DNA from: Candidatus Shapirobacteria bacterium
GTDB lineage: Bacteria; Patescibacteriota; Microgenomatia; UBA12405
Length of the DNA stretch: 64,000 nt
NCBI GenBank assembly: GCA_016188545.1
Contig: JACPHO010000001.1
Coordinates: 14,249 to 78,248 of the forward strand
Direction of reading: 5' to 3'
Positions 9,004 through 63,457 of this stretch are shown here, in pieces. Within the stretch, counting starts at the first letter, position 1. Each line of letters opens with the position of its first letter. The notes beneath the pieces are model-generated. The model was given only the letters and a program-made list of their open reading frames with translations, searched no databases and was not told the DNA's origin. A program made the position numbers and the translations under genes.

Positions 9004-9648
9004 ATGCTAACGAAACTTGAGATGAGCAAAAAGAAGTCATACTCTTCAGACGTGCCGCCCGAAGAGGTGAGTGACTTATCTGAAATAAAACTCAAAAAAA
9101 AGCGCTTTTTTATAATACTTTCTATTGTCCTAACTATAGGACTAAGTCTGGTTTTTATCATTTATCGACAGGTGAAAGAGATAGTTGTCAACCCCAAGCT
9201 TTCTATCCCTCGTTTACCTCAGCTATCTCTTTCAAAACCAGTTGTCACTAGCGCCGATATTGAAGACCTGACCGCCGCCATTTCCCAAATTATTACCATC
9301 GATCAATCAAATTGGAACATCGTCGTTGCCAATAGTACTGCCGTGTACAATTGGCCTAGCAATCGTAACCATTTTGATCTGTCACAGGTAACTGCTATTT
9401 CCAATAAATTTTCCCGACTCCTCCCATCAACCCTACTTGCTGAGCTACTTCCCCAGGGACTTTTAGTTCGGGAAGAGTCTAGTAGTAATCAGGATCAACA
9501 AAAAATCACCGCTGTCATTTATCCACCAACATCTACTCCCATTTTTTTTGATCTCCAATATGAAGGAACAGCTGAAGAATTTCAAAAAATAATCACTGAA
9601 CTTATCCCTACTATTTACTGGAGTACGATTAGCCAATCAACCCCTTAA
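9004..9648 (+). CDS. hypothetical membrane-anchored protein
   Basis: 214 aa; single N-terminal TM (FFIILSIVLTIGLSLVFIIY). Confidence 0.4.
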   Translation: MLTKLEMSKKKSYSSDVPPEEVSDLSEIKLKKKRFFIILSIVLTIGLSLVFIIYRQVKEIVVNPKLSIPRLPQLSLSKPVVTSADIEDLTAAISQIITIDQSNWNIVVANSTAVYNWPSNRNHFDLSQVTAISNKFSRLLPSTLLAELLPQGLLVREESSSNQDQQKITAVIYPPTSTPIFFDLQYEGTAEEFQKIITELIPTIYWSTISQSTP

Positions 9649-11681
9649 GGTTGTGGTGTTGGTGTAGCTTTTGGTGAAGGACATTTTATATCTTTCTCTG
9701 TTCCGCTAATAAAATATTCTTCCCGACCACAAACATTTTTCTTTGCTACCCCCTCCGGAGGGATTAACCATTGAGTTGACTTTCGTGAGGCTATCATTTC
9801 TCTCATAATTTTATTCCAAATTGGAGTTGCCCCAGATACCCCAGACGCTACCCAGCTCATCGGACTATTGTCGTTGTTACCAACCCAAGCTGCCACCATC
9901 ACATCGTTAGTCCAGCCAATACACCAATTGTCTCGCAGACTATTTGTCGTCCCTGTCTTTACAGCCACAGTTTCATTATCTATTTTTAGTTTTGAATTCA
10001 AACCAAAAACAGGGGATCTGGCTTGGTTATCGCTCAGTGCACTATTTATCAAAAATGCCTGCTTTGGATCAATTGTTTCCACCCCCACTGCCTCACTCCC
10101 AAATACCTTTTCACCCAAGTAGTTCTCTATTTTAAGCACTGATGTTAGTTCAACCTTCTTTCCCATATTCGCGAAGATACTATATGCACTTGCCAGTTCT
10201 GTCATCTTAACTTCGCCAGCCCCCAGGGCGAGTGAAAGACCAAACCGACTCTTATCTTTCCAAGTATTAATTCCCATTTGTTCTGCCAGGTCGATCATAT
10301 TTTCCACTCCATTTGTCGCCAATAGTTTTACCGAAGGGATATTTAGTGATGAAGCGAGAGCTGTCCGTAGAGTTACATTCCCCAAATACTTACCATTATA
10401 ATTTACCGGTATGTAAGGCTTACTTTGACCAGCAATTTTGTATACGACCTTTTCATCATCGATTATCGTCGCCAAGTTTTGCCCTTTTTTTAGTGCCAGA
10501 AGATAGTTTATTGGCTTGATTGACGACCCTGGTTGTCGGAGTGCTGTTGTTACATTAAACTTACCATCCATATTTGAGGCAAAGTAATTTCTTGAACCCA
10601 CCATTGCTAATACTTCACCGCTTCCAGGGGATAGCACGATTGCTGCCCCGTTAGTGATTTTTAGTCTCTCAACAGAAGATACTTCCTCGGCGACAATTTT
10701 TTCGGCCATCTTCTGTATTTGGATATCAAGACTCGTTACCACTGTCATTCCTCTTCTGGCAAAATTGTCATAACCAAGCTTCTTTTCCAAAAAATCTTTG
10801 ACATAAAACACAAAGTGAGGGGCCTGAATGGTTGGTCGATTAACGACTATCTTAAGATCTTCCGCCCTCATGTCAGAGGCTTCTTTTTCCGTTATAAATC
10901 CGGCCGACTCCATTTCTGATATCACATGTTTTTGTCTTAAAAATCCAAATTTTGGGTTATCACCGGTGGGCGAGTATGAGCTAGGTGCTGCCGGTAAACC
11001 GGCCAAAAATGCTGCCTCTGCCCCAGTTATCTCCCATACATTTTTACCAAAATATTTTTTAGCTGCTTCCTGAACTCCATACGTCTCACCACCGTACGCC
11101 ACTTGGTTAAAATATCGCTCCAGTATTTCTTCCTTAGATAATTTTTTCTCAACCATCAGCGCCAGGAGAGCCTCCCGCATTTTTCTTTTCCATGTCTTCT
11201 CGTTTGAGAAAAATACGCTTTTCACTAACTGCTGAGTTATTGTCGATCCACCCTGAAGTGTTCCGTTATTTTCTCTTTTAAGCATGTTGTAGATTAGTGC
11301 CTGACTTATTCCTTTAACCGATATCCCCTGATGCTGTAAAAAGCTTTTATCTTCTATCGCCAGAGTTGCTATAACTAAAGACTTAGGAATCTTAGCCAAC
11401 GGTACCCAGCTCCTATCCTCATCTTCATAAAATTTATAAAGTAATACCCCGTTTCTATCCAAAATTTTTGAAGAGAGTCGAGGTGGGTTGTATATTTCGT
11501 TAACGTTCGGCAGGCCTACTATCACTTTCAAATACAACCATATCAACACCCCACTCATCCCCAGCAGTATTGATCCTAAAAACAGGTATGATCGGACAAT
11601 TCGTAATCCAAATTTTAAAATAATCAGTAGCGGCCATCCTAATGCGATTAGCATTTTTTTAAGTAACAGAATTGGTCGCAT
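9645..11681 (-). CDS. class A penicillin-binding protein (PBP1A family; transglycosylase + transpeptidase)
   Basis: 678 aa; GT51 motifs EDKSF, GGSTITQQLVK; transpeptidase SSIKP (SxxK), SLN, KTGTT. Confidence 0.85.
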   Translation of the reverse strand: MRPILLLKKMLIALGWPLLIILKFGLRIVRSYLFLGSILLGMSGVLIWLYLKVIVGLPNVNEIYNPPRLSSKILDRNGVLLYKFYEDEDRSWVPLAKIPKSLVIATLAIEDKSFLQHQGISVKGISQALIYNMLKRENNGTLQGGSTITQQLVKSVFFSNEKTWKRKMREALLALMVEKKLSKEEILERYFNQVAYGGETYGVQEAAKKYFGKNVWEITGAEAAFLAGLPAAPSSYSPTGDNPKFGFLRQKHVISEMESAGFITEKEASDMRAEDLKIVVNRPTIQAPHFVFYVKDFLEKKLGYDNFARRGMTVVTSLDIQIQKMAEKIVAEEVSSVERLKITNGAAIVLSPGSGEVLAMVGSRNYFASNMDGKFNVTTALRQPGSSIKPINYLLALKKGQNLATIIDDEKVVYKIAGQSKPYIPVNYNGKYLGNVTLRTALASSLNIPSVKLLATNGVENMIDLAEQMGINTWKDKSRFGLSLALGAGEVKMTELASAYSIFANMGKKVELTSVLKIENYLGEKVFGSEAVGVETIDPKQAFLINSALSDNQARSPVFGLNSKLKIDNETVAVKTGTTNSLRDNWCIGWTNDVMVAAWVGNNDNSPMSWVASGVSGATPIWNKIMREMIASRKSTQWLIPPEGVAKKNVCGREEYFISGTEKDIKCPSPKATPTPQP

Positions 11682-11686
11682 TAATT

Positions 11687-13876
11687 TTATTGATTTATTA
11701 TCGTTGTTGGTAATTGACTTCCGGTCGTATCACCGGGATTTATATTTAAAGGACAGTCCAAGCACACCCATACTCCACTAGCATCTCTAACCGCTTGATG
11801 TTCCTGCCACTCGACGTTAGTTTTTACCTCACCGTCTTTGACAATTCTATTTGTGTCCTTGTCTATTAACACATTATTTTTGATCGGCAACCTTTTTGTT
11901 GGGGAATACTCTTTTTTGAAATATTCATAATGTGAGTCACATCCTGCCTCTGGGGGTAGCTCACCAGTAAAGTTACAAACTGCAATCTTTTGAACATCAA
12001 CCGGCACTACCGGCTTTTTGACTGGCTTGTCTTTAAGTAGATAGGTCATTACTTTGTTCCAAATCGGTGCTGCTCCAGTAGTACCTGATACCAGATATCC
12101 CATTTTGCTATTGTCGTTATTTCCCACCCACACAGTGGTCACAAAATCAGGTGTGTATCCAATCGTCCAATTGTCCCGCAAATCATTGGTTGTCCCTGTT
12201 TTGGCTGATACTTCGGGATGTCCCTTGATAGTCAAAAGCGATCCCCGTCCAAACACCATACTTCGAGACCCGTCATCAGACAAAATATCGGTGATAATAA
12301 AACTCGTATCCCTAGACAAAACTCTTTCTCCTGGAATGTCCTGGTAGCTCTCTAGAACCTTCCCATGTCTATCAGTTATATTCAGTACGGAAACAAGGTT
12401 CTGCCTTATTCCACCATTGGCAAATACTCCGAATGCTGTATTCATCTCCGTCATCATAACTTCACCACCACCAAGAGTTATTGATAGTCCGTATAAGGAC
12501 GGATCTTTATAAGTAGAGATTCCCATAGCTGATGCTGTCGCCACAAAATTTTCAAGTCCGACTAGTTGAATTGTTTTAACGGCTGGAATATTTAGTGAGT
12601 TACCCAGCGAATTACGCAAGCTTTGTATACCACTGTAACGCCCACCATAATTAGTCGGACAGTACATCTTTTGATTCTCGACTTTAAAGCATGTCGGACT
12701 ATCGTCAAAAATTGTGGCCGCAGTCACTTTCCCCATCTCAATCCCAGTGGCATAGTTCAATGGTTTTATTGACGATCCTGGTTGTCTTAACGCAGTGGTC
12801 ACATTGAATTTGCCTTCTATATCATTAGCAAAAAAATCTTTTGAGCCCACCATAGCTAATATCTGCCCCGTCTTTGGCTCAGTGACTAGCCCAGCTCCAT
12901 TGGATATCTTTTGTTTAGCCAGCTTTGTAGTCTCAGAGGCTATTGTGTGTTGCATCATCTCCTGAACGTTTGAATCAAGGGTTGTGGTGATCTTCAGTCC
13001 ACCTTCGTTAACCAACTTCGCACCATACTTTTCAACTAACATTTCTTTGACATAAAAAACAAAGTGAGGCGCTACGATCTCGTCTTTATTAATGTAATAG
13101 TTCAACGGTTCCTTTTCTGCCGCCAACTTCTCATCTTCTGTTATGTAATCCAATTCACGCATTCTCGTCAAAACCAGCTCTTGTCTTTTTTTAGCAGCGT
13201 CGGGGTGAGCAAAAGGGGAATATCTGGTCGGTGAGCCCGGCAGTCCAGCTAGTAACGCCGCCTCACCTGTGGTCAGATCTTTAACTTCTTTATTAAATAT
13301 TCCCTTGGCGGCTGCACCCACACCCCAGAGAGTTCCACCGTATGGAGTCTGGTTAAAATACATCTCCAGAATCTGTTTTTTGGTATACAGCACTTCAGTT
13401 GATACTGTTAATAATGCCTCTTTTACCTTTCGAGTCCAGGTCCTCTCCGGTGTCAGTAGTGCATTTTTCACCAACTGTTGGGTAATAGTTGACCCACCTT
13501 GCAACCTCTTTTGGACTAGCGTTCTAAAGAGTCCTCGGACAATACCCCTCAAATCAAATCCTATGTGACTATAAAAGTTAGCGTCTTCCACTGCCAAAGT
13601 TGCTTTAACCAATCTTTCTGGGACATCATCAATTTTGACAATATTTCTTCTTTTTTCAGAGAAAATCTCATAAATCAATTTCCCGTTTCTGTCCATAATT
13701 TGAGAATTTTCTGGATAAATATCCGACGTTAGACTTCTCGGGTTTGGCATATCTTTCAAAAGAAATGCCATGAAAATTACGAAAGGGATTAATACAGCGA
13801 GACCAATAACTAAGAATCGATTCTTAGTAATTCCACGTATATCTATTTTTTTCTTGTTGTTTGTTCCAGCCATCAA
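11687..13876 (-). CDS. class A penicillin-binding protein (PBP1A family), second paralog
   Basis: 729 aa; EDANFYSH, GGSTITQQLVKN, PGSSIKP, SLN, KTGTT. Confidence 0.85.
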   Translation of the reverse strand: MMAGTNNKKKIDIRGITKNRFLVIGLAVLIPFVIFMAFLLKDMPNPRSLTSDIYPENSQIMDRNGKLIYEIFSEKRRNIVKIDDVPERLVKATLAVEDANFYSHIGFDLRGIVRGLFRTLVQKRLQGGSTITQQLVKNALLTPERTWTRKVKEALLTVSTEVLYTKKQILEMYFNQTPYGGTLWGVGAAAKGIFNKEVKDLTTGEAALLAGLPGSPTRYSPFAHPDAAKKRQELVLTRMRELDYITEDEKLAAEKEPLNYYINKDEIVAPHFVFYVKEMLVEKYGAKLVNEGGLKITTTLDSNVQEMMQHTIASETTKLAKQKISNGAGLVTEPKTGQILAMVGSKDFFANDIEGKFNVTTALRQPGSSIKPLNYATGIEMGKVTAATIFDDSPTCFKVENQKMYCPTNYGGRYSGIQSLRNSLGNSLNIPAVKTIQLVGLENFVATASAMGISTYKDPSLYGLSITLGGGEVMMTEMNTAFGVFANGGIRQNLVSVLNITDRHGKVLESYQDIPGERVLSRDTSFIITDILSDDGSRSMVFGRGSLLTIKGHPEVSAKTGTTNDLRDNWTIGYTPDFVTTVWVGNNDNSKMGYLVSGTTGAAPIWNKVMTYLLKDKPVKKPVVPVDVQKIAVCNFTGELPPEAGCDSHYEYFKKEYSPTKRLPIKNNVLIDKDTNRIVKDGEVKTNVEWQEHQAVRDASGVWVCLDCPLNINPGDTTGSQLPTTIINQ

Positions 13877-28760: not shown

Positions 28761-29534
28761 TTATACCTCTATCTCAATCCCTACTGGACAATGATCTGAA
28801 CCCATCACCTCAGTCAATATGAATGCCTCTTTGAGGTTTTTGCTCAGAGCCTTATCGATATAGATATAATCAATTCTCCAGCCTACATTCCTCGTTCGTG
28901 CCTTAGTAATTTGATCCCACCATGAATACATCACCTCATCTGGGTGAAGTAATCGAAATGTATCAACCCAACCTTGATCCTCCCATTGAGTCAGTATTTC
29001 TCTTTCCTCAGCTAGAAATCCTGACACCTTCGAATTTTCCTTTGGTCGAGCTAGGTCGATCTCTTCATGGGCCGTATTTACATCTCCACAAAAGATTACT
29101 TTCTCACCCTTTTTACGTAGTTCATTAACGTAAGCCAAAAAGTATTTATAAAAATCCATCTTATATTTCAGTCTTCCCAAGTCTCGCTTCCCATTTGGAA
29201 AATATACGTTTAGTAAGGTAAATTCGTCAAATTTAGTTATCACCACTCTGCCTTCGTTATCCCAGTCATTGTCCCTGTCTCCAATAATCACCGTCTTTGG
29301 TTCGTCTTTACTAAATGTCGCGACCCCAGAGTATCCGGCTTTTTCGGCTTCATTTAAATTCATATGGTATCCAGCCGGTTCGTCTATCGTGTGGGGGATT
29401 TGGTCTACTTTGGCTTTCATCTCTTGAAAGCAATAGACATCAGCCTTATCTTCCGCCATAAATTGATACACACCCTTTTTTACTGCTGCTCTAAACCCAG
29501 CGACATTCCAAGATATGATTCTAATTTTCATCAC
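28761..29534 (-). CDS. xth: exodeoxyribonuclease III / AP endonuclease
   Basis: 257 aa; ISWNVAG, CFQE, SDHCPV. Confidence 0.85.
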   Translation of the reverse strand: MMKIRIISWNVAGFRAAVKKGVYQFMAEDKADVYCFQEMKAKVDQIPHTIDEPAGYHMNLNEAEKAGYSGVATFSKDEPKTVIIGDRDNDWDNEGRVVITKFDEFTLLNVYFPNGKRDLGRLKYKMDFYKYFLAYVNELRKKGEKVIFCGDVNTAHEEIDLARPKENSKVSGFLAEEREILTQWEDQGWVDTFRLLHPDEVMYSWWDQITKARTRNVGWRIDYIYIDKALSKNLKEAFILTEVMGSDHCPVGIEIEV

Positions 29535-29994: not shown

Positions 29995-30066
29995 CCAGCA
30001 GGAGCCGGGCGGTTAGGCAATGGTCTGTAAAACCATCATAAGTAGGTTCAACTCCTACCTGCTGGA
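29995..30066 (+). tRNA. tRNA-Tyr (GUA), class I (short variable arm)
   Basis: acceptor ccagcag/ctgctgg; anticodon stem atggt/accat with loop CUGUAAA (the Tyr loop); T-arm gtagg-TTCAACT-cctac; discriminator A; 5-nt variable region. Confidence 0.55.
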
Positions 30067-30112
30067 CAAGACACTGGAGTATACTAATTGGATTAATGAT
30101 TAAACATAATCC

Positions 30113-31330
30113 ATGTCAGAATTCAAACTTAATCCAACATTTATATCCCAAGAACAACTAACTAAACCTGGTAATCCTGGTTCTGAGTCAATTCTGCCAA
30201 ATACAAACAGGGGGGGCTTTGATAAATTTACTCAAATCTATCAAAATATTTCAACATCAAATGCCACAGATCAAAGAAAGCAGTTCGAACAATCAAAAGT
30301 AGCGATTAGTGAAATACTCAGGGACACACTTACATCTGAAACCGTCATCGAAGTGCAAAATCCGTTTCAAAATGAGACAGATAACGATAAAACAATTAAT
30401 GTCCCACTCGATCAATACATCCAGTATTGGCAGCGCGACTTAGAAACTACTTTTGCCGCCCAAGATAATTTCGTAGCAATTTGTGAAGGAAAACTGTCGG
30501 GAAAACTACTAAAGCACGACAAAAATAACCCTTCATTATTTGTTAAAACAGCTGATTTATTAATTGGACATCTAACCAATGCCGGTGAGCCAAACGACGA
30601 GAGTAAAACGAAAATTGCCGAATTTGCCCTAAAACAACTTGAATCGACTACCACCAAGAAAATTGATGCACCGAGTGCTATCACTGCCGTTAATTTGGTC
30701 AATGCCGTATTTTATTGCAATGGAACCACAAAAGAGAAATCTGCTGAAATGTTGCCTCACGGATTGAATGTCATGCAAAACATAGTAAGAAACCAGCAGT
30801 TTAAAGATAAAAAACAGTATCCAACAAATATAAAAAGCAAATCGCTAGACGAACAACAGGCAATAAGACAAAAAGTGAACCTGGATAATCTTGACATTGA
30901 CTTTCACAATCAACAAGCAGAATCAGTGCTGCAAGCAATTGCCAAAACATTGTCGTTTCCACTTGATTACAGCCTAGACCAGGCAGAACCGTTGTTTAGT
31001 AGACTGCAAGATGTATTTACAAACGACAAAGCAGTACTTAATGATTTCAGAGTAAAAACGATTAATATGTACAAGGACGTGTTGCTAGATAAATTTAGGG
31101 ACCAGGCTATGAATCCACTACCGGAGACATTACTAAGCATGCCCAATGAGCAGCGGGCATCAGTTGTGACTACGGCCATTGGTTTATTGAAATTAATTTA
31201 TGACCAGGGTTACGATAAAACTGCCAGCCAGTTGCAGTTCAAAATACCTGACATTGCAATAATGTATATCATGCACAAAAAAGATAATAGCTATCGTGGT
31301 CCACAGACAGAGAGGTTTGTGAGGGTATAA
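30113..31330 (+). CDS. hypothetical protein
   Basis: 405 aa; no TM, no recognisable motif. Confidence 0.45.
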   Translation: MSEFKLNPTFISQEQLTKPGNPGSESILPNTNRGGFDKFTQIYQNISTSNATDQRKQFEQSKVAISEILRDTLTSETVIEVQNPFQNETDNDKTINVPLDQYIQYWQRDLETTFAAQDNFVAICEGKLSGKLLKHDKNNPSLFVKTADLLIGHLTNAGEPNDESKTKIAEFALKQLESTTTKKIDAPSAITAVNLVNAVFYCNGTTKEKSAEMLPHGLNVMQNIVRNQQFKDKKQYPTNIKSKSLDEQQAIRQKVNLDNLDIDFHNQQAESVLQAIAKTLSFPLDYSLDQAEPLFSRLQDVFTNDKAVLNDFRVKTINMYKDVLLDKFRDQAMNPLPETLLSMPNEQRASVVTTAIGLLKLIYDQGYDKTASQLQFKIPDIAIMYIMHKKDNSYRGPQTERFVRV

Positions 31331-31332
31331 CA

Positions 31333-32307
31333 ATGGTACGAAAAACAGTAGATCGCCCCAACTTATCCGAAAACATCGTTCAAATAATAGAGAAGTCAGG
31401 TGAATATGGAAGCTCTTGTTGGCTAAGAGCCCAGGGGTTGATGGATAAATTAGTAGATGAAGGTATTGTGACAGTCCAAGCTGTTGGACTTAAGCCCCTT
31501 ATGGGGGATATGTCTAGGCCAGGCCATGTAGGGCTAATCATATTCAATAAAATGGTTTGGATTGATTCGGGTGACGGGCTGGGTTCTGCAACACATGACA
31601 TTAGTCCAGAAACTGTATTATCACCAAGATCAATTCTACACAACGGGACATATTACCGAGTTTTTGAGATAACCAGTGATAGACAAGAGTTTGAAGAATT
31701 CGTTGCGGTTCACAACTCTTTGTCTGATCTGGGCACTGATGTCAATGAACTGTTAGTAAATAATGGAACAGATCCTGAGATGGGGAAGGTTCTGTGGAAA
31801 CTGCAACTGCTCTCAGACAAGTTGGAACATTTTTTTGGAGTTGACACACAGTTGTCACAAGAATCACAACGAGAGTTATTGATAATGTTTACTGACACTT
31901 TTACGAAGACTGCAAAACACAACTTATCTGAACATTCAAGCGAGAATATGAATGAACTACTTAAAGGGATAATCTATCGACCTGAGTTTCTGTTGCAAAT
32001 GGTAATCGAGGAATCAGAAAGGCATCAAAACTATCTACACAAAACAGTGTCCAGGATTGCAAATGTGCAGAGCTTAGACGATGTAAACATTAGAAGCTGT
32101 GATGATTTTTGGAAAGAAGCAAATGACAGATTTAAATTATGGGAAAATTATTCAAAAAACATTACTTGCTTGTTAAAAGTTGGACATCCAATTTATTCAC
32201 AATCGACACCGAAGGAACTTGTTGACGCTATACAAGACTCTCTAAACAAAGTGCTGTTAGAAACATTGGGCTATATACGTATGTATAAGGAGGAAGGTGA
32301 AAATTGA
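31333..32307 (+). CDS. hypothetical protein
   Basis: 324 aa; starts 3 nt after the previous gene (operon); no motif. Confidence 0.45.
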   Translation: MVRKTVDRPNLSENIVQIIEKSGEYGSSCWLRAQGLMDKLVDEGIVTVQAVGLKPLMGDMSRPGHVGLIIFNKMVWIDSGDGLGSATHDISPETVLSPRSILHNGTYYRVFEITSDRQEFEEFVAVHNSLSDLGTDVNELLVNNGTDPEMGKVLWKLQLLSDKLEHFFGVDTQLSQESQRELLIMFTDTFTKTAKHNLSEHSSENMNELLKGIIYRPEFLLQMVIEESERHQNYLHKTVSRIANVQSLDDVNIRSCDDFWKEANDRFKLWENYSKNITCLLKVGHPIYSQSTPKELVDAIQDSLNKVLLETLGYIRMYKEEGEN

Positions 32308-32574
32308 TCCATTTCATCATTAATCCTGTATAGAAAGCACTAAAATACATAACGCTGAGCCAATTTTTCAACTGGTTAGTGGGCACGAGAGTCTCCTAAA
32401 TGGAAATTAGGTTAGCCATAATCCGTTTCCATCATACCAACATTCTCTTGACAGTCTTGTCATCTTCCATATTCTTTATTGCTGTGTGCGAGTTTTTCTC
32501 GTACGCGTAGCTTTCTAAATGAGAATGGAATAGAGCCGTAGCATAGTTTTATATCGTTTTGATACAATGTCCTC

Positions 32575-32895
32575 ATGAAAATAGAAACACTTACAGCCTG
32601 GCAACTAAGTGATTCTCCAGCATGCAATAGTGAGGCAGAAGAAATAATGGGGGAATTAATAAGGATCTCAGCTGATGCACAGGAGTGGAAACCAGTGCCA
32701 GTGACGGAGTTGGACAGACTATTTACGGGGGTAACCACAAGAGATAACCTGGAAGCACCCCTAAGAGAAGGCGTAATCAATCTAAGGACATCAGGACTAG
32801 TAACTCTGGAAGATGTCGATGGTGTCCGCTCTATAGTTGTCACTGAGAAATTCAAGACGTTTTATGAGAAAGCTTCTCAGAAAAAGTTGCCCTAA
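32575..32895 (+). CDS. hypothetical protein
   Basis: 106-aa ORF. Confidence 0.3.
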   Translation: MKIETLTAWQLSDSPACNSEAEEIMGELIRISADAQEWKPVPVTELDRLFTGVTTRDNLEAPLREGVINLRTSGLVTLEDVDGVRSIVVTEKFKTFYEKASQKKLP

Positions 32896-32922
32896 AAACT
32901 GAATATCTCCATTTCCACCTAG

Positions 32923-33390
32923 TCAAGTCGCAGACAGATATTTCTTAATCGTTTTTTCTCCTGCTTTCTTTCCATCAACCTTGAAAAACGCCAAATATCT
33001 AAGCCAACTGCCCATATTTACTTTCTTCATTGTTGTTAGTATCAAGTTTGCAATCTTTTCTGTCGTCACCCACTTCTCTTTGGACAGTATTAACCTTTCT
33101 TCAACTTTGTCAAAAATTCCTACCGCCACAATACCAGCACTCCCTCTATCCAACTTTTTTTCGCCAACTACCGCATGATATATCGACGAATATAACTTTG
33201 CTCCAACATACTTAACTCTTTTTCCTGACTTTTTAACAACTGTAATATGTGCCAGATCAATTTTTTCATGAGTCGTAAATACAAATTCACACTTCAAGCA
33301 CTTCCTCCTTCTCCAAATTTGAGTTCCTTTATTGGTTGGTCTCGAGTTAGTGACTTCAATTTGTTCGCTTCCACAACTTGGACAAAACAT
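32923..33390 (-). CDS. nrdR: transcriptional repressor NrdR
   Basis: 155 aa; N-terminal zinc ribbon MFCPSCGS...CLKC followed by an ATP-cone (VVKKSGKRVKY). Confidence 0.8.
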   Translation of the reverse strand: MFCPSCGSEQIEVTNSRPTNKGTQIWRRRKCLKCEFVFTTHEKIDLAHITVVKKSGKRVKYVGAKLYSSIYHAVVGEKKLDRGSAGIVAVGIFDKVEERLILSKEKWVTTEKIANLILTTMKKVNMGSWLRYLAFFKVDGKKAGEKTIKKYLSAT

Positions 33391-33520
33391 ATCTATATAT
33401 TGACATGTAACTATAGATTTATCAATTTAAATATTAATTATAAACCTAAAACAGTTGTCATGCATATCTACATCATGTTCTATCAAGTAGGCCGCTATTA
33501 ATTTTAAATATAAGTATCAA

Positions 33521-33907
33521 ATGACCAAAGACCATAAAACAGAAATTATAATTAGTGAACCAGAGCAGATATCATTGTTTGTCAGACAAGCCAATCACTT
33601 TATAGAATCAAAACTATATTTGGGAGTCCACACCATCGGATCCAACCCAAGTGGGGTAATTTCATATCCTACTGGAAATGTTGAAAACTCAACTCTGAAA
33701 CCAACTGTCAAACCTGTATCCATAACCCCACCTTTTAGAATTTCCTTTTCACAAAATGATGAGGACACTAGTGTTTTTCACTCGAATTGTGAATTCTCAC
33801 CTGATCCATCACAGGATTGGATGCTGGACATTCTAAAATACCATTTCGCCCGTGCTGTCGCCACTTCTCTTCCAAAACCAAGATCACCTACTTCTATTAA
33901 CAGTTAA
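33521..33907 (+). CDS. hypothetical protein
   Basis: 128-aa ORF. Confidence 0.3.
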   Translation: MTKDHKTEIIISEPEQISLFVRQANHFIESKLYLGVHTIGSNPSGVISYPTGNVENSTLKPTVKPVSITPPFRISFSQNDEDTSVFHSNCEFSPDPSQDWMLDILKYHFARAVATSLPKPRSPTSINS

Positions 33908-34223
33908 ATCAAGTATGAACAATATAGTTCTTAGTCAGCCAAGCAAAATTTACTCAATTGTTAATTCGCTAAACGACTCAGACATTTTCAGCTCAATAAA
34001 TATTAGCTCATTTAGTGCTGGCCAAGACTATCTCAAGTGGTTGGCCCCGTCGCTAGAATATCCCTGTATTTTCAATCCTTACTATCTTTTTTATCCATTC
34101 AAAATAGGCTATGGTCCACGACCATTCATTACATTTACTGATGAAATCGGCGAAAACAAACTCTTGCTCGATCAGGTCAAAACAAAAATACTGGCGATAA
34201 TTCTAAATACATCAAAGTTTTGA
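33852..34223 (+). CDS. hypothetical protein
   Basis: 123-aa ORF; overlaps the previous ORF in another frame. Confidence 0.25.
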   Translation: MLSPLLFQNQDHLLLLTVKSSMNNIVLSQPSKIYSIVNSLNDSDIFSSINISSFSAGQDYLKWLAPSLEYPCIFNPYYLFYPFKIGYGPRPFITFTDEIGENKLLLDQVKTKILAIILNTSKF

Positions 34224-34381
34224 TGCAGTTATTTGTAGTGTCAGATATTAGGCGAGAATTAAAAAGCATCAGGCAATACCGTAAAAAACTGGGGTTAAAC
34301 TAAGCCAGTTCTTGATTTTACTTTTCTAAATACTTAGTATTAATTATCACTAAAATAATTAAGGCACCACTTCTTTGCATT

Positions 34382-34798
34382 TTGTTTTTGATATTAGGTT
34401 TTTTTATAGGCAATAAACTGCAGCTACAAAAAGAAAAATCATGGTTTGAATCCATCAAACCAGTCCCCTTTGCCGGTGTCCAACAATATGCCACTTATTA
34501 TTACCAGGTAGATGATGATTTACCTAAATTTAAAGTTCAGGCATCAACATTTATCGAAGATCCGTATAGTGAGTTGTGTAATGATTGTGTTAATCAAGAA
34601 ATAAAAATTGGCAAAAACGAGATAACTTTAATGACCAATCCTAATCGAAAAAATCCTATATCAATCTATATTGTGCCAGAAGAAAACTACGGCAGTATCT
34701 ATAGTTTTCAATATTATCAACTTGATCAAAAGGGAAACGAAATTGAGTTTGAAGATGGCGTAAAGGAGGAAATTATAAGAGAAATTGAAAATTGGTAG
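34382..34798 (+). CDS. hypothetical protein (putative secreted)
   Basis: 138-aa ORF with N-terminal hydrophobic segment. Confidence 0.3.
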   Translation: MFLILGFFIGNKLQLQKEKSWFESIKPVPFAGVQQYATYYYQVDDDLPKFKVQASTFIEDPYSELCNDCVNQEIKIGKNEITLMTNPNRKNPISIYIVPEENYGSIYSFQYYQLDQKGNEIEFEDGVKEEIIREIENW

Positions 34799-34811
34799 AA
34801 CTATTTAATAA

Positions 34812-35675
34812 CTAGTCACGTTCTTCAATCAGTCTTTCAACTGCCTCCGCTGTTTCTTCTGGTTTTTCCACTGTCAACACATGTCCTGCCTCATCAACTT
34901 CCTCAATATGATATTTACCCCTACCATCCAGTAGTTTTCTTGCTTGAGTCGCATTAGTTAGCTTATCGAATTTTCCGAAAATTAGATCAATTGGGATAGT
35001 ATTATTTTCAATTAAGTCATCGATGTGAGTCTTTGAAATCGCCATCCCCATATCCACATAAACTTCCTTCGACGCCTTTAACTTCCCCTCAAAACCTGTC
35101 TCATCGATTATTTTCTTATCAAACTTATACATATTTATATGTTTGGCAGTGAAATAGGTATAGCGTTTTGTATCGACAATCCGCTTAACCGCGCTCATAG
35201 CTAATTTGCTTTTGCGAAGCAGCCGATACATCACTCCCATAACTTTCACCATCGCTGTTTTATTGTTTTTTAAAAACATTGGGGCAATCAGAATTATGTG
35301 ACTAGCTACTTTTGGATGGCGGCTATAAAAAGTCGATACTACATAAGCCCCCATCGAATGACCCACAACTACCGGTTTTTTTATCTTCATACTTTTGATA
35401 AAACCAGCCAGATAATCCGCTTGGTTCCTAAGATTATAAGAATCTAGTCGGTCGCTATCTCCAAAACCGGGAAGATCTACCCCGATAAATTGATACTCTT
35501 TATATAGATACCGTGCCATTGGGATAAACCCCTTCCAATTATTTGTCCATCCGTGCACAAACACGAGAGGACGACCTTTTCCCGAAGTAGCATAGTGTAT
35601 AACAGTATCTCCAACTTTTACCTCTGCTTCCTTAAATATTGCTACTTTGGCACCTTTTGTGATATCTTTAGACAT
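34812..35675 (-). CDS. alpha/beta-fold hydrolase
   Basis: 287 aa; HGW...; nucleophile elbow GHSMG. Confidence 0.7.
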   Translation of the reverse strand: MSKDITKGAKVAIFKEAEVKVGDTVIHYATSGKGRPLVFVHGWTNNWKGFIPMARYLYKEYQFIGVDLPGFGDSDRLDSYNLRNQADYLAGFIKSMKIKKPVVVGHSMGAYVVSTFYSRHPKVASHIILIAPMFLKNNKTAMVKVMGVMYRLLRKSKLAMSAVKRIVDTKRYTYFTAKHINMYKFDKKIIDETGFEGKLKASKEVYVDMGMAISKTHIDDLIENNTIPIDLIFGKFDKLTNATQARKLLDGRGKYHIEEVDEAGHVLTVEKPEETAEAVERLIEERD

Positions 35676-35677
35676 AG

Positions 35678-36739
35678 ATGTATCTTAGCAAACTTCACCT
35701 TAATTTCTTCCGTTCTTATCAAGATAGACTGATCGAATTTGGACCAAAAACAAATCTTATTGTCGGTCACAACGGTACTGGTAAGACCAATATTCTTGAG
35801 GCTATCTACTTCCTATCTTCTGGTAAAAGTTTCCGAAGTAGTGCCTTAGGTCAACTCCTCAAGTGGGACTCAACATATACTATCGTCACTGGAATAATCA
35901 ACCTCAATGATCACCAGACTGAGCTCGAATGTCAGCTCAGTAAAGAAATTGGAAAAGTTTCTGCAACCCGTAAATTTTTTATCGACAGAGTCGTCAAAAC
36001 CCGTCCCAAATACTTAGGTACCCTCAAAACTGTGGTCTTTGAGCCTGAGGATATCCGCCTTGTCACCGGTTCACCTTCTCGCCGCCGTGATTATCTCGAT
36101 AGTGTCTTTAGTACTACGCAGTGGCGTTATGCTGGCGCTCTTTCCCAGTACAACCGTGCTCTCAAACATCGTAACGAGCTATTGGACATGATTCGGGAAA
36201 ACCGCTCAAACAAATCAGAACTTTTTTATTGGGACCAATCTCTGATTAAAAATGCCACTATCATCCAAGATTTTCGTCAAAACTACATCCGTTCAGTCAA
36301 TCGTTACTTTAGTCAGCATGCTCTATCCGAAATACAACAACTTTCTCTCAATTACCGACCCTCCACTCTCTCCCAAGAAAAATTAGATCAACAGTATATT
36401 ACTGACCTCAACTTTGGCTACACTCAAGCTGGAATTCATCGTGATGATTTTAGCTTTGACAGTAAAGCCTTTTCAGCTTCCAACAAAAATCTGGCTTTTT
36501 GGGGGAGCCGAGGACAACAGAGGTTGTCGGTCCTTGCTCTCAGATTAGCCCAGATCAACTATCTCGAAGAGACATATCACCAAAAACCCATCCTACTACT
36601 GGATGATATCTTCTCAGAACTTGACCCGGAACACCGCCAACTAGTAGTCGACATTTGCCAAAGCTACCAGACAATCTTTACTTCAGCCGAGAGTACTACT
36701 TGCGATATCTTACCTACTTCTCAACAGATAATCCTCTGA
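35678..36739 (+). CDS. recF: DNA replication and repair protein RecF
   Basis: 353 aa; Walker A GHNGTGKTN; signature/Walker B LLLDDIFSELD. Confidence 0.8.
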   Translation: MYLSKLHLNFFRSYQDRLIEFGPKTNLIVGHNGTGKTNILEAIYFLSSGKSFRSSALGQLLKWDSTYTIVTGIINLNDHQTELECQLSKEIGKVSATRKFFIDRVVKTRPKYLGTLKTVVFEPEDIRLVTGSPSRRRDYLDSVFSTTQWRYAGALSQYNRALKHRNELLDMIRENRSNKSELFYWDQSLIKNATIIQDFRQNYIRSVNRYFSQHALSEIQQLSLNYRPSTLSQEKLDQQYITDLNFGYTQAGIHRDDFSFDSKAFSASNKNLAFWGSRGQQRLSVLALRLAQINYLEETYHQKPILLLDDIFSELDPEHRQLVVDICQSYQTIFTSAESTTCDILPTSQQIIL

Positions 36740-36923: not shown

Positions 36924-38501
36924 TGTACTAAGAGTTTGATCGTGGCTCAGGGTAAACGCTGGCGATGTGCCTAAGACATGCAAGTCGAACGGGATTTGTA
37001 GTCTACACGAAGACATTGATAACTTCTTAACTTTTTTTAAGTCTTTCCACTTTTGGAATATTTTTTTGAACTTTGATAAGAATCGATTATTGTAATCATT
37101 TCGATGTTTTCGTGTAGATTATAGATTCAGTGGCGAACGGGTGAGTAATGAGTACGAACGTACTCTCAAGCGGAACATAGCCCACCGAAAGGTGGGGTAA
37201 TTTTCCATAGTCTCGAAAGAGTAAAGACGCAAGTCACTTGAGAAGCGGCGTACTTGCCACCAGCTAGTTGGTAGGGTAACGGCCTACCAAGGCTATAACG
37301 GCTAACGGCTCTTAGCGGAGAGTCCGTCACAATGGGACTGAGACACGGCCCATACTTCTACGGAAGGCAGCAGTTAGGAATCTTGCACAATGGACGAAAG
37401 TCTGATGCAGCGACATCGCGTGAAGGATGAAGGCTCTCGGGTCGTAAACTTCTTTTATTTTGCCATGAAGGCATTTTGAATCAGCAACTACTAACTACGT
37501 GCCAGCAGTCGCGGTAATACGTAGGTTGCAAGCGTTACCCGGTTTTATTGGGCGTAAAGCGTCTGTAGGTGGTTTTATAAGTCTTATTTCAAAGACTCCG
37601 GCTCAACCGGAGATAGGGGTAGGATACTGTAAGACTAGAGTGATATCGGGGTTACTGGAATTTTTAGTGTAGGGGTAAAATCCGTGGATACTAAAAAGAA
37701 CACCAAGCGCGAAGGCGGGTAACTAGGTATTTACTGACACTCAGAGACGAAAGCTAGGGTAGCCAATCAGATTAGAGACCTGAGTAGTCCTAGCCGTAAA
37801 CTATGTATGTTAATTCTCTGCAATTTATTGTGGGGGATGTAAGCTAACGCGTTAAACATACCGCCTGGGGAGTATAGCCGCAAGGCCGAAACTCAAACGA
37901 ATTGGCGGGGAGGCGCACAACCAGTGGAGCATGTGGTTCAATTCGATACAAAGCGATGAACCTTACCTGGGTTTGACATTTATCTGCAAACCCCCAGAAA
38001 CGGGGGAATCCTTAGAGGGTGATAAACAGCTGTTGCATGGCTGTCGTCAGCTCGTGACGTGAGTTGTTCTCTTAAGTGAGGTAACGAGCGCAACCCCCAT
38101 CCGGTGTTATTGTGTCACCGGAGACTGCCTAGCATTATTTTGTTAGGAGGAAGGAGGGGACGACGTCAAGTCAGCATGATGCTTATGTCCAGGGCTACAC
38201 ACATCCTACAATGGGGAGGACAATGGGTCGCGAAACCGCGAGGTGGAGCCAATCCCACAAACCTTTCCTCAGTTGGGATTGCAGGCTGAAACTCGCCTGC
38301 ATGAACCCGGAATTGGTAGTAATCGCGCATCAGCAGCGCGCGGTGAATACGTTCTCGCCTCTTGCACACACTGCCCGTCAAATCAACAAAGTTGGGGGTA
38401 CCCGAAGCTTGGCCTTTGGCCGAATCAAGGTAAATCCAGCGATGAGGGTTAAGTCGTAACAAGGTATCTGTACTGGAAGGTGCAGATGGATCACCTCCTT
38501 T
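36924..38501 (+). rRNA. rrs: 16S ribosomal RNA, divergent (CPR-like), with ~100-nt AT-rich expansion in helix 6/V1 (~36995-37118)
   Basis: AGAGTTTGATCGTGGCTCAG at the 5' end; GTGCCAGCAGTCGCGGTAATAC (515 site with C>T); ATTAGAGACCTGAGTAGTCC; CTGCCCGTCA; AAGTCGTAACAAGGTA; GGATCACCTCCTT at the 3' end. Confidence 0.9.
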
Positions 38502-48199: not shown

Positions 48200-48700
48200 A
48201 AAAATATAAAGGAGGACTTTGTCACTCCGAAGCTCCCCAAAGGGGAGCGAAGGAGGAGATGCCAGGTATTGAGCCCGGGTCCGAAAGTGGACAATAAAAA
48301 ACTTCTACAAGCTTAATTAATTTTACTTGCCAGTCCGTAGCTCAAAGAGCGAAGGATGGTCCGTCAGTCAATGGAAATTAACAAACCATTGTTGACTGTC
48401 GATTATTGAGGGCATTACCCCTCGCTTGTTACCTACCAAAATCGAGATTGATAGACCAGCATTCTTGTTTAATTTACACCGACTAACCTCCTCAAGAATA
48501 GGGGATTAACCGATGGTCAGCTCAATTATGCTTGCGCGTAGTTGAGATCAGCTTTTGAAGTACCCAAACCGAAGCCTGAGAAATCTAGAGCTAAATTGAC
48601 ACCGAAGTTTTTAGCTTTGGCATGTTTTTGTTTGACCCTGTTTTATCCGTTTTACAACAGATCCGGCTCGGCCGGACGACTCAATGGATCAAAGTCGGCT
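48200..48700. ncRNA. candidate structured RNA in a 617-nt ORF-free gap (tmRNA or RNase P RNA-like; strand and ends unresolved)
   Basis: GC-rich hairpins (ctcccc-aaa-ggggag; gagggcattacccctc); plus strand: ACAGATCCGGCT resembles RNase P CR-IV and can pair with GAGCC[C]GGGTC 385 nt upstream (P4-like), GCCAGGTA shared with M1 RNA; minus strand: GGGGTAATGCCCTCAATAATCGACAG resembles a tmRNA 5' end; adjacent to smpB. Confidence 0.2.
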
Positions 48701-48773
48701 TGCGGTTTTTTAAGGTACTCACTCCGTCGATGCAATACATCTCCGAGTCTAGAACAGGAAAATTATACCATAT

Positions 48774-56018: not shown

Positions 56019-56083
56019 TATATTTTGCAAACTACATATTTATTAGGTAACATATTACCAAGTGTTAAGAAGATGCTAATCCA

Positions 56084-57253
56084 TTGGCAACCGAGCTCAG
56101 CCACGGTGCCCTCAATAACACGCCTTTAATAATTAACAAAGGAAAAATGAATTATCCTCAGTTCTCTTCCGAATCTGTCTGTGAAGGTCATCCCGATAAA
56201 GTTTGCGATCAAATCGCCGATGCCATTCTCGATGCCGCTTATACCATTGACCCCAAAGCTCGTGTAGCCTCTGAGGTTTTGGCAACAGCCAATAAATTAG
56301 TTCTGGCTGGTGAAATCACTGTAAACGGTGAACTAGACTTCGAAGCCATTGCTCGCAAAAAGATTGCAGAGTTAGATTATCTAGATCCTGTTCTGCAGTT
56401 CACTGACAAATCAGACATTGAGGTATTTATCCACAAACAATCACCAGACATCGCTCAAGGTGTCGATGCTGGTGGTGCAGGTGATCAGGGAATGATGTTT
56501 GGTTATGCCTGCAAAGAGACTCCTGAACTAATGCCCCTGCCTATTTCTATGTCTCACAGTCTGGCTAGAAAAATGGATGAATTGCAACGTATTCACCGCT
56601 GGTTACGTCCCGACGGTAAGTCACAAGTAACTGTCAGGTACGATGGTCAAACACCTTCCGTTATCGAACAAGTAGTGCTTGCCAAACCAATAAATTATGC
56701 AGCTGCTCCCCAAGATTATGCGCATTTCTTTTATGAGAATGTAGTTGTACCGGTCTTATCGGAATACGGATTTTCCGTTACCGAAGGTAAAATGATCCTA
56801 AACGGCACTGGTAAGTGGGAAATCGGTGGACCATTCTCAGACACTGGCGTAACCAATCGAAAAATTGTCGTCGACACTTTTGGAGGTATGGGAAGAATCG
56901 GTGGGGGTGGATTATCCGGTAAAGATACCACCAAAGTTGATCGCAGTGGGGTTTACGCTGCCCGTTATTTAGCCAAAAATGTAGTCGCTGCTGGTCTTGC
57001 TGATCGCTGCGAAGTCCAGTTAGCTTATGCCATCGGACAAGTCCAACCTGTCGGTAAAGCCATCGAAACATTTGGTACTGCCCGTTCCGAACAAAAAGTA
57101 ATTGAAGATTTCGCCTGGCAACTCCTCGACCTTTCTGTTGCTGGTATCAATGAAGGACTTTCTCTCCGTGTACCTATTTACCAAAAAACTGCTCGTTATG
57201 GACACTTTGGCAACAAAGATTATCCTTGGGAAAAGATTATCGCATCTCAATAA
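56084..57253 (+). CDS. metK: S-adenosylmethionine synthetase
   Basis: 389 aa; GHPDKVCDQIADAILDA, GAGDQG, GGGGLSGKD. Confidence 0.9.
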   Translation: MATELSHGALNNTPLIINKGKMNYPQFSSESVCEGHPDKVCDQIADAILDAAYTIDPKARVASEVLATANKLVLAGEITVNGELDFEAIARKKIAELDYLDPVLQFTDKSDIEVFIHKQSPDIAQGVDAGGAGDQGMMFGYACKETPELMPLPISMSHSLARKMDELQRIHRWLRPDGKSQVTVRYDGQTPSVIEQVVLAKPINYAAAPQDYAHFFYENVVVPVLSEYGFSVTEGKMILNGTGKWEIGGPFSDTGVTNRKIVVDTFGGMGRIGGGGLSGKDTTKVDRSGVYAARYLAKNVVAAGLADRCEVQLAYAIGQVQPVGKAIETFGTARSEQKVIEDFAWQLLDLSVAGINEGLSLRVPIYQKTARYGHFGNKDYPWEKIIASQ

Positions 57254-63109: not shown

Positions 63110-63457
63110 TCACAATCTCGATGACTTCAATATTGCAGCAATTATTCTCGCCAACTCATCACAACAACCAATTGTTTCTTTGGCTACTTTTTCATCAATA
63201 TATTTCGTCTCTCGCAGTAATTTTAGCCAATAAATTGTCTCCCTTGTTTCTTTGTATGCTATTGAAAACTTAGAAACAAAATCTTTTTTACTTTGTCCTC
63301 CAATAGCCTCTTCCACATTTGCCCCAATTGATGTTCCCGATCTCAACATCTGTTTTGATAACACAAACTCCTTCTTACTCTCTGCCAAATGTTTATATAA
63401 GTTTATTATTTTTACAGCAAATTCAAAGCTCTTTTTTTGAACAATATTTTCTTTCAC
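63110..63457 (-). CDS. four-helix-bundle protein (23S rRNA intervening-sequence protein family), second copy
   Basis: 115 aa; ...LRSGTSIGANVEEAIGGQSKKDF...ETIYWLKLL... Confidence 0.65.
   Translation of the reverse strand: MKENIVQKKSFEFAVKIINLYKHLAESKKEFVLSKQMLRSGTSIGANVEEAIGGQSKKDFVSKFSIAYKETRETIYWLKLLRETKYIDEKVAKETIGCCDELARIIAAILKSSRL

Follow-up and report, generated by a model that had tools for sequence, protein, structure and literature searches.

A class I tRNA-Tyr with archaeal/eukaryal identity elements in a Shapirobacteria-like CPR bacterium

Tyrosine identity and the CPR precedent

The 1:72 base pair and the variable arm define tyrosine identity, a textbook case of domain-specific tRNA recognition. 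Genetic-code expansion relies on it for its most commonly used orthogonal pair. In bacteria, the variable arm of tRNA-Tyr is bound by the S4-like domain of the bacterial tyrosyl-tRNA synthetase (TyrRS). PMC5370408 gives C1:G72 together with A73 as the archaeal and eukaryal identity, whereas bacteria use G1:C72 and a long variable arm. In Table 1 of Giege and Eriani (2023; PMC9976931), A73 is combined with C1-G72 in Archaea and Eukarya, and the bacterial entry has A73 without that pair.

The closest described system was reported by Mukai, Reynolds, Crnkovic, and Soll (2017, Life 7:8; PMC5370408), who found C1-G72 in the tRNA-Tyr of CPR bacteria, together with a TyrRS of archaea/eukarya type. 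In that article, this combination occurs in subgroups of Parcubacteria, Microgenomates, Dojkabacteria, and Katanobacteria, and the CPR TyrRS genes most likely derive from DPANN archaea. Many of the CPR C1-G72 genes retain the variable arm (V-arm). The sole V-arm-less copy named in the same text belongs to a Roizmanbacteria genome that carries one armed and one arm-less tRNA-Tyr. In the legend of Figure 2 of that article, Shapirobacteria are listed as one of the major bacterial groups that possess an archaea/eukarya-type TyrRS. The CPR tRNA-Tyr phenomenon is already published, and Shapirobacteria are already named there. In the literature searched, neither a follow-up to this study nor aminoacylation data for any CPR pair were found, and two later reviews, one of them PMC9976931, do not discuss the case.

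The switch of CPR bacteria to the archaeal rule indicates that recognition rules are not hardwired to domain, a point made in 2017. The locus described here adds a divergent Shapirobacteria-like genome. The survey of relatives adds at least 15 more species in which the arm-less form is the conserved state, as well as an unreported conserved substitution of the tRNA core, G8/G14. This substitution could matter where natural bacterial C1:G72 tRNAs are considered as engineering scaffolds. The finding opens no new question.

Sequence and structure of the tRNA-Tyr gene

The window, the whole 64-kb stretch of DNA that was analysed, carries a class I tRNA-Tyr(GUA) gene of 72 nt on the forward strand at 29995..30066, supported by ARAGORN, Rfam, a minimum free energy (MFE) cloverleaf, and a 16-sequence alignment. 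ARAGORN calls tRNA-Tyr with anticodon gta at 29995..30067 and places the anticodon at position 33. Rfam matches 29995-30066 to RF00005 over model positions 1-71 of 71, with 53.6 bits (E = 1e-08) against a gathering score of 29. The MFE fold is a cloverleaf of -24.7 kcal/mol, and CCA is not encoded. In an exact search, the 3' half of the tRNA occurs once in the window, with 0 copies expected by chance. The identical gene is also present on a contig of an independent Logan assembly (L001, SRR12113420). Position, length, isotype, and structure had been proposed in a sequence-only reading of this DNA, and both programs uphold them.

Reading from the 5' end, the acceptor strand CCAGCAG (29995..30001, + strand) is followed by a stretch that the Rfam alignment assigns to positions 8-9, the D-arm, and A26 (30002..30019, + strand), composed of GA, the D-arm segments GCCG, GGCGGUU, and AGGC, and a single A. 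The anticodon stem, AUGGU paired with ACCAU, encloses the loop CUGUAAA (30025-30031), which contains the anticodon GUA (30027..30029, + strand), A37, and the run A36-A37-A38. Between the anticodon and T stems, the Rfam alignment places a variable loop of 5 nt, CAUAA (positions 44-48; 30037..30041, + strand), and no variable arm. The T-arm, GGUUCAACUCC, consists of the stem GUAGG/CCUAC and the loop UUCAACU. The 3' acceptor strand CUGCUGG and the discriminator A73, the latter at 30066, close the gene (30059..30066, + strand). Anticodon loop, variable loop, T-arm, and discriminator are all as the sequence-only reading had given them; the C1:G72 pair and the G residues at positions 8 and 14 do not appear in it.

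In both the sequence and the Rfam alignment, the first base pair is C1:G72, formed by C at 29995 and G at 30065, and it is the most diagnostic feature of the gene. The canonical bacterial design of G1:C72 with a long variable arm is replaced by C1:G72 with a 5-nt loop. The earlier assignment to the class I archaeal/eukaryal form, and not to bacterial class II, is supported, and the C1:G72 pair strengthens the case. The observation that this bacterial genome carries a tRNA-Tyr(GUA) of class I is confirmed.

A bacterial CPR host

The host is a CPR bacterium and not an archaeon, as indicated by a bacterial 16S rRNA gene, a tmRNA, penicillin-binding proteins, and 15 syntenic relatives. The 16S rRNA gene lies at 36924..38501 on the + strand (Rfam RF00177, 1322.7 bits) and holds an insertion of 116 nt. 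This insertion is located near the 5' end (approximately 37003-37119), and several helices are truncated relative to the bacterial model; such insertions and truncations are often seen in CPR bacteria. The closest 16S among the relatives is that of L002, a Shapirobacteria genome, with 88.5% identity (blastn). Shapirobacteria are placed in the Patescibacteria/Microgenomates group by NCBI taxonomy. The tmRNA, a bacterial marker, was found at 48251..48744 on the - strand (Rfam RF00023, 67.2 bits). It is unusually long, with 494 nt against a model of 374 positions, and shows large insertions of low confidence in the pseudoknot region. RecF and NrdR are encoded in the window (Pfam), and GC content is uniform (0.34-0.43) across 24-37 kb.

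Further features of the window were recorded alongside. Two tandem genes for class A penicillin-binding proteins (9645-13876; 678 and 729 aa) combine transglycosylase and transpeptidase domains. A SAM-I/IV riboswitch (56057-56158; 45.3 bits) sits directly 5' of an S-adenosylmethionine synthetase gene (56084-57253) and overlaps its listed start. On Logan contig L018, the ORF at 63110-63457 is annotated as a member of PF05635, the family of 23S rRNA intervening-sequence proteins. Despite this ORF, no 23S gene is present in the 64-kb window, nor is a 5S gene, and the 16S stands alone.

Conservation among relatives

Orthologues of the tRNA-Tyr gene were sought by a pattern scan of 185,579 GTDB species genomes. 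The pattern had three fixed elements, namely the acceptor stem, the anticodon loop, and a portion of the T-loop, whereas the lengths of the D-arm and of the variable region could vary, the latter up to about 25 nt. Fifteen GTDB species matched, and in all of them the gene is of class I, with 72 nt and a variable loop of 5 nt (15/15); ARAGORN called tRNA-Tyr at every relative locus. By record title, the matches are mostly Candidatus Shapirobacteria (nine), with one Woesebacteria and one Parcubacteria. Six loci (L004, L005, L007, L012, L014, and L015) come from GTDB representative TPA MAGs titled 'uncultured Gammaproteobacteria' (CAYPBP01, CAYRMT01, CAZCYZ01, CAYSME01, CAZCFJ01, and CAZLCB01, respectively). 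These titles are probably wrong, since the six MAGs are syntenic with the other relatives and carry the Shapirobacteria-type tRNA-Tyr.

The neighbourhood of the gene is shared as well. Upstream, a gene of the Exo_endo_phos family (28761..29534, - strand; Pfam PF03372, E = 2e-31) precedes the tRNA in the window and in all 15 relatives (L002-L016; blastn synteny). Downstream, many relatives have recF followed by 16S (blastn), and the window counterpart of the former is a gene for a recF-like SMC_N ATPase at 35678..36739 on the + strand (Pfam, synteny). At the DNA level, the flanking genes of the window are only 65-72% identical to those of the relatives. Because of this divergence and a best 16S match of 88.5%, the window represents a lineage distinct from all 15.

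The interval between tRNA-Tyr and recF (30113-35675, about 5.6 kb) is occupied in the window by two ORFans, NrdR, small ORFs, and an alpha/beta hydrolase. The ORFan proteins (405 and 324 aa) have no Pfam or PHROG match. In relatives such as L002 and L012, this stretch is missing or far shorter, and the tRNA is followed by recF and 16S within 0.1-1.6 kb.

The gene has been conserved vertically under structural constraint. In an alignment of 16 tRNA-Tyr sequences, comprising the window and the 15 relatives, 100% of the stem cells are paired, with no broken pair, and three pairs (28:42, 29:41, and 51:63) have changed on both sides. The covariation score was reached by 0 of 500 shuffles, and slid registers all collapse. 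The acceptor stem was kept constant by the search pattern, and its invariance is therefore not counted as evidence.

A non-canonical tRNA core

Almost all tRNAs possess U8 and A14. The core of the window tRNA-Tyr is instead built from G8, a D stem of 3 bp (GCC/GGC), a G13·A22 mismatch, G14, G15, and U21, so that G8/G14/U21 stand against U8/A14/A21 in the Rfam tRNA consensus. All 16 aligned sequences have G8 and G14, and 15 of the 16 have U21. A48 lies opposite A15 in all 15 relatives and opposite G15 in the window alone, giving an R15·A48 combination throughout. In the tRNA-Cys of the same genome (2565-2635), positions 8 and 14 are the usual U and A. No canonical tRNA-Tyr, including those of archaea, shares the conserved G8/G14/U21 core.

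A different folding geometry is also conceivable. The centroid fold pairs G8 with C65, which corresponds to an acceptor/T-stem geometry of 8/4, at -24.5 kcal/mol versus -24.7 kcal/mol for the canonical 7/5. Since G8, G49, and C65 never vary among the 16 sequences, covariation cannot separate the two arrangements.

The proposed partner synthetase

This gene carries the archaeal/eukaryal identity set, which consists of C1:G72, A73, the anticodon GUA, and the lack of a variable arm. Taken as a whole, it is probable that it is the working chromosomal tRNA-Tyr of a Shapirobacteria-like CPR bacterium, charged by an archaea/eukarya-type TyrRS. The TyrRS of the cell would be of archaea/eukarya type, gained by lateral transfer, most likely from DPANN archaea as argued in PMC5370408, and devoid of the bacterial S4-like C-terminal domain. 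Such an enzyme would read C1:G72, A73, and the anticodon, and the variable arm would for that reason be dispensable. The tRNA would have co-evolved with the acquired synthetase. The gene, its identity elements, its CPR host, and its vertical conservation are shown directly. The TyrRS type of this genome is deduced from the literature on the lineage and from the identity set, and a second, class II tRNA-Tyr is presumed to be missing.

The partner enzyme was sought at several levels. Within the 64-kb window, TyrRS probes from M. jannaschii and B. stearothermophilus gave nothing below E = 0.25 (tblastn), and no aminoacyl-tRNA synthetase was detected by Pfam among the ORFs adjoining the tRNA. Logan contigs of SRR12113420 extend the window by about 6.3 kb upstream, adding enolase, a methyltransferase, and GroES/EL, and by about 1.5 kb downstream; no TyrRS was found in these extensions. 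The 8-kb loci of the 15 relatives had no match with three TyrRS probes (tblastn).

Broader searches for a Shapirobacteria TyrRS led elsewhere, to enzymes of eukaryotes, of DPANN and other archaea, and of giant viruses. With a profile of the M. jannaschii, human, and yeast enzymes, the best 120 matches in the protein database were all eukaryotes, and in metagenomes the same profile returned at least 80 loci, methanogen-like and archaeal. Yeast TyrRS gave at least 150 matches against 50%-identity representatives, and nearly all of the prokaryote-sized proteins among them carried no label in their clusters; a query with P0213 retrieved Woesearchaeota, giant viruses, and fungi, and a 26-sequence TyrRS profile had no CPR names among its matches. 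Six contigs with TyrRS-like genes comprised three archaeal contexts and three giant-virus-like ones, and identity clustering of TyrRS yielded a star-like radiation that was uninformative. As a separate observation, the search with the 26-sequence profile was topped by about two dozen double-length TyrRS-like proteins (P0409-P0430 and P0125; approximately 660-695 aa), nearly all of which come from Logan assemblies only. They recall the pseudo-dimeric TyrRS of kinetoplastids.

Alternative explanations

The main rival to an archaea/eukarya-type partner is a bacterial-type TyrRS of relaxed specificity, comparable to that of human mitochondria. According to PMC9976931 and PMC5370408, human mt-TyrRS is of bacterial type, keeps the S4-like domain, ignores the orientation of the 1:72 pair, and acts on a V-arm-less substrate. 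The loop CUGUAAA resembles bacterial and not archaeal forms, as does the 3-bp D stem with its G13·A22; this would suit an enzyme of this kind, and so would the fact that no TyrRS was encountered among the window, the Logan extensions, and the loci of the relatives. What speaks against it is the listing of Shapirobacteria with an archaea/eukarya-type TyrRS in PMC5370408. C1:G72 is found in all orthologues, yet the acceptor stem was fixed by the search pattern, and this constancy is not independent evidence of selection on the pair. On balance, charging by a relaxed bacterial-type enzyme seems improbable.

Less probable still is a redundant or decaying copy at this locus, with a canonical class II bacterial tRNA-Tyr elsewhere doing the work. 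The portion of the genome inspected amounts to about 72 kb, of which about 8 kb are Logan flanks outside the window, and PMC5370408 describes two tRNA-Tyr genes in one Roizmanbacteria genome. In that genome, however, the second copy is also C1-G72, and hence no copy with bacterial identity exists there. A decaying copy is also hard to reconcile with an Rfam score of 53.6 bits, with compensatory stem changes and no broken pairs, and with conservation across 15 species whose flanks are only 65-72% identical in DNA. The sequence-only reading had itself named a pseudogene and a second, class II tRNA-Tyr as points to be settled. A pseudogene is ruled out by intact pairing, compensatory stem changes, and conservation in 15 species. 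No G1:C72 class II tRNA-Tyr occurs among the two tRNAs of the window, in the approximately 8 kb of extra flanks, or in the Shapirobacteria loci examined.

Effectively refuted is the view that archaeal contamination or chimeric assembly put the gene on a bacterial contig, or that a phage or mobile element carries it: cross-contamination between CPR and DPANN bins is a known problem (PMC5370408), the acceptor stem is 11/15 identical to that of M. jannaschii tRNA-Tyr, and the 5.6 kb 3' of the tRNA differ among relatives, but 15 MAGs of unrelated studies and one independent Logan assembly show the same bacterial neighbourhood, GC is uniform, and the body outside the acceptor stem is only 50-54% identical to the archaeal tRNA-Tyr. 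Covariation and synteny across the relatives rule out an archaeal contaminant or a chimeric contig. No att-like repeats were found, including any repeat of the tRNA 3' end, and the variable 5.6 kb downstream has no PHROG match. With no GC anomaly either, a mobile element is not supported.

Possible origin of the tRNA body

Outside the acceptor stem, the tRNA-Tyr is 69-71% identical to the tRNA-Cys of the same genome. The D loop (7 nt, xxCGGUU) and the T loop (UUCAACU) are the same in both, the anticodon arms are similar, and the anticodons are one base apart (GCA to GUA). In the relative L007 (2005-2267), tRNA-Tyr and tRNA-Cys lie in tandem, 118 nt apart. These resemblances are only suggestive of an origin of tRNA-Tyr from tRNA-Cys by tRNA gene recruitment.

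A more elaborate scenario, which we regard as unlikely, would treat the Shapirobacteria tRNA-Tyr as a remodelled bacterial tRNA and not as a transferred archaeal one. The starting point would have been an arm-less class II tRNA-Tyr or a duplicate of tRNA-Cys, and its acceptor end would have converged on the archaeal identity. The core would have been rebuilt around G8·G14(·U21) and R15·A48, in place of the near-universal U8·A14·A21 and Levitt pair, or would have adopted the 8/4 geometry. If true, this tRNA would be a natural example of tRNA re-engineering after synthetase replacement.

Comparison with known tyrosine systems

The Methanocaldococcus jannaschii tRNA-Tyr belongs to the orthogonal pair that is standard in E. 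coli work. Set against it, the window tRNA is likewise class I and has the same C1:G72, A73, and GUA. The acceptor stems, CCAGCAG here and CCGGCGG in M. jannaschii, are identical at 11 of 15 positions (73%) including position 73, whereas the bodies share only 50-54% identity. The archaeal tRNA has the canonical U8/A14/A21, and the window tRNA has G8/G14/U21. The D stem is of 4 bp in the former and of 3 bp with G13·A22 in the latter, the D loop measures 9 and 7 nt, respectively, and position 37 is G in the archaeal tRNA and A in the window tRNA.

Resemblance to bacterial tRNA-Tyr is found in other parts of the molecule. The E. coli tyrT/tyrU products have the same anticodon loop CUGUAAA, the same A73, and a 3-bp D stem with unpaired purines at 13/22, which is a hallmark of class II tRNAs. 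They differ in G1:C72 and in the arm formed by their variable region of about 13 nt, where the window tRNA has C1:G72 and a 5-nt loop. The human mitochondrial tRNA-Tyr is, like this one, V-arm-less and functions in a translation system of bacterial descent. Unlike in mitochondria, the CPR enzyme itself is reported as replaced.

The closest match remains the CPR system of Mukai et al. (2017), with which the present locus shares a CPR Microgenomates host and, on the tRNA side, C1:G72, A73, and GUA; V-arm-less forms are among those reported in that article. The text of PMC5370408 makes no mention of a G8/G14/U21 core. Relative to that text, a further difference is that the V-arm-less form represents the conserved state here, shared by the window and 15 Shapirobacteria-like species.
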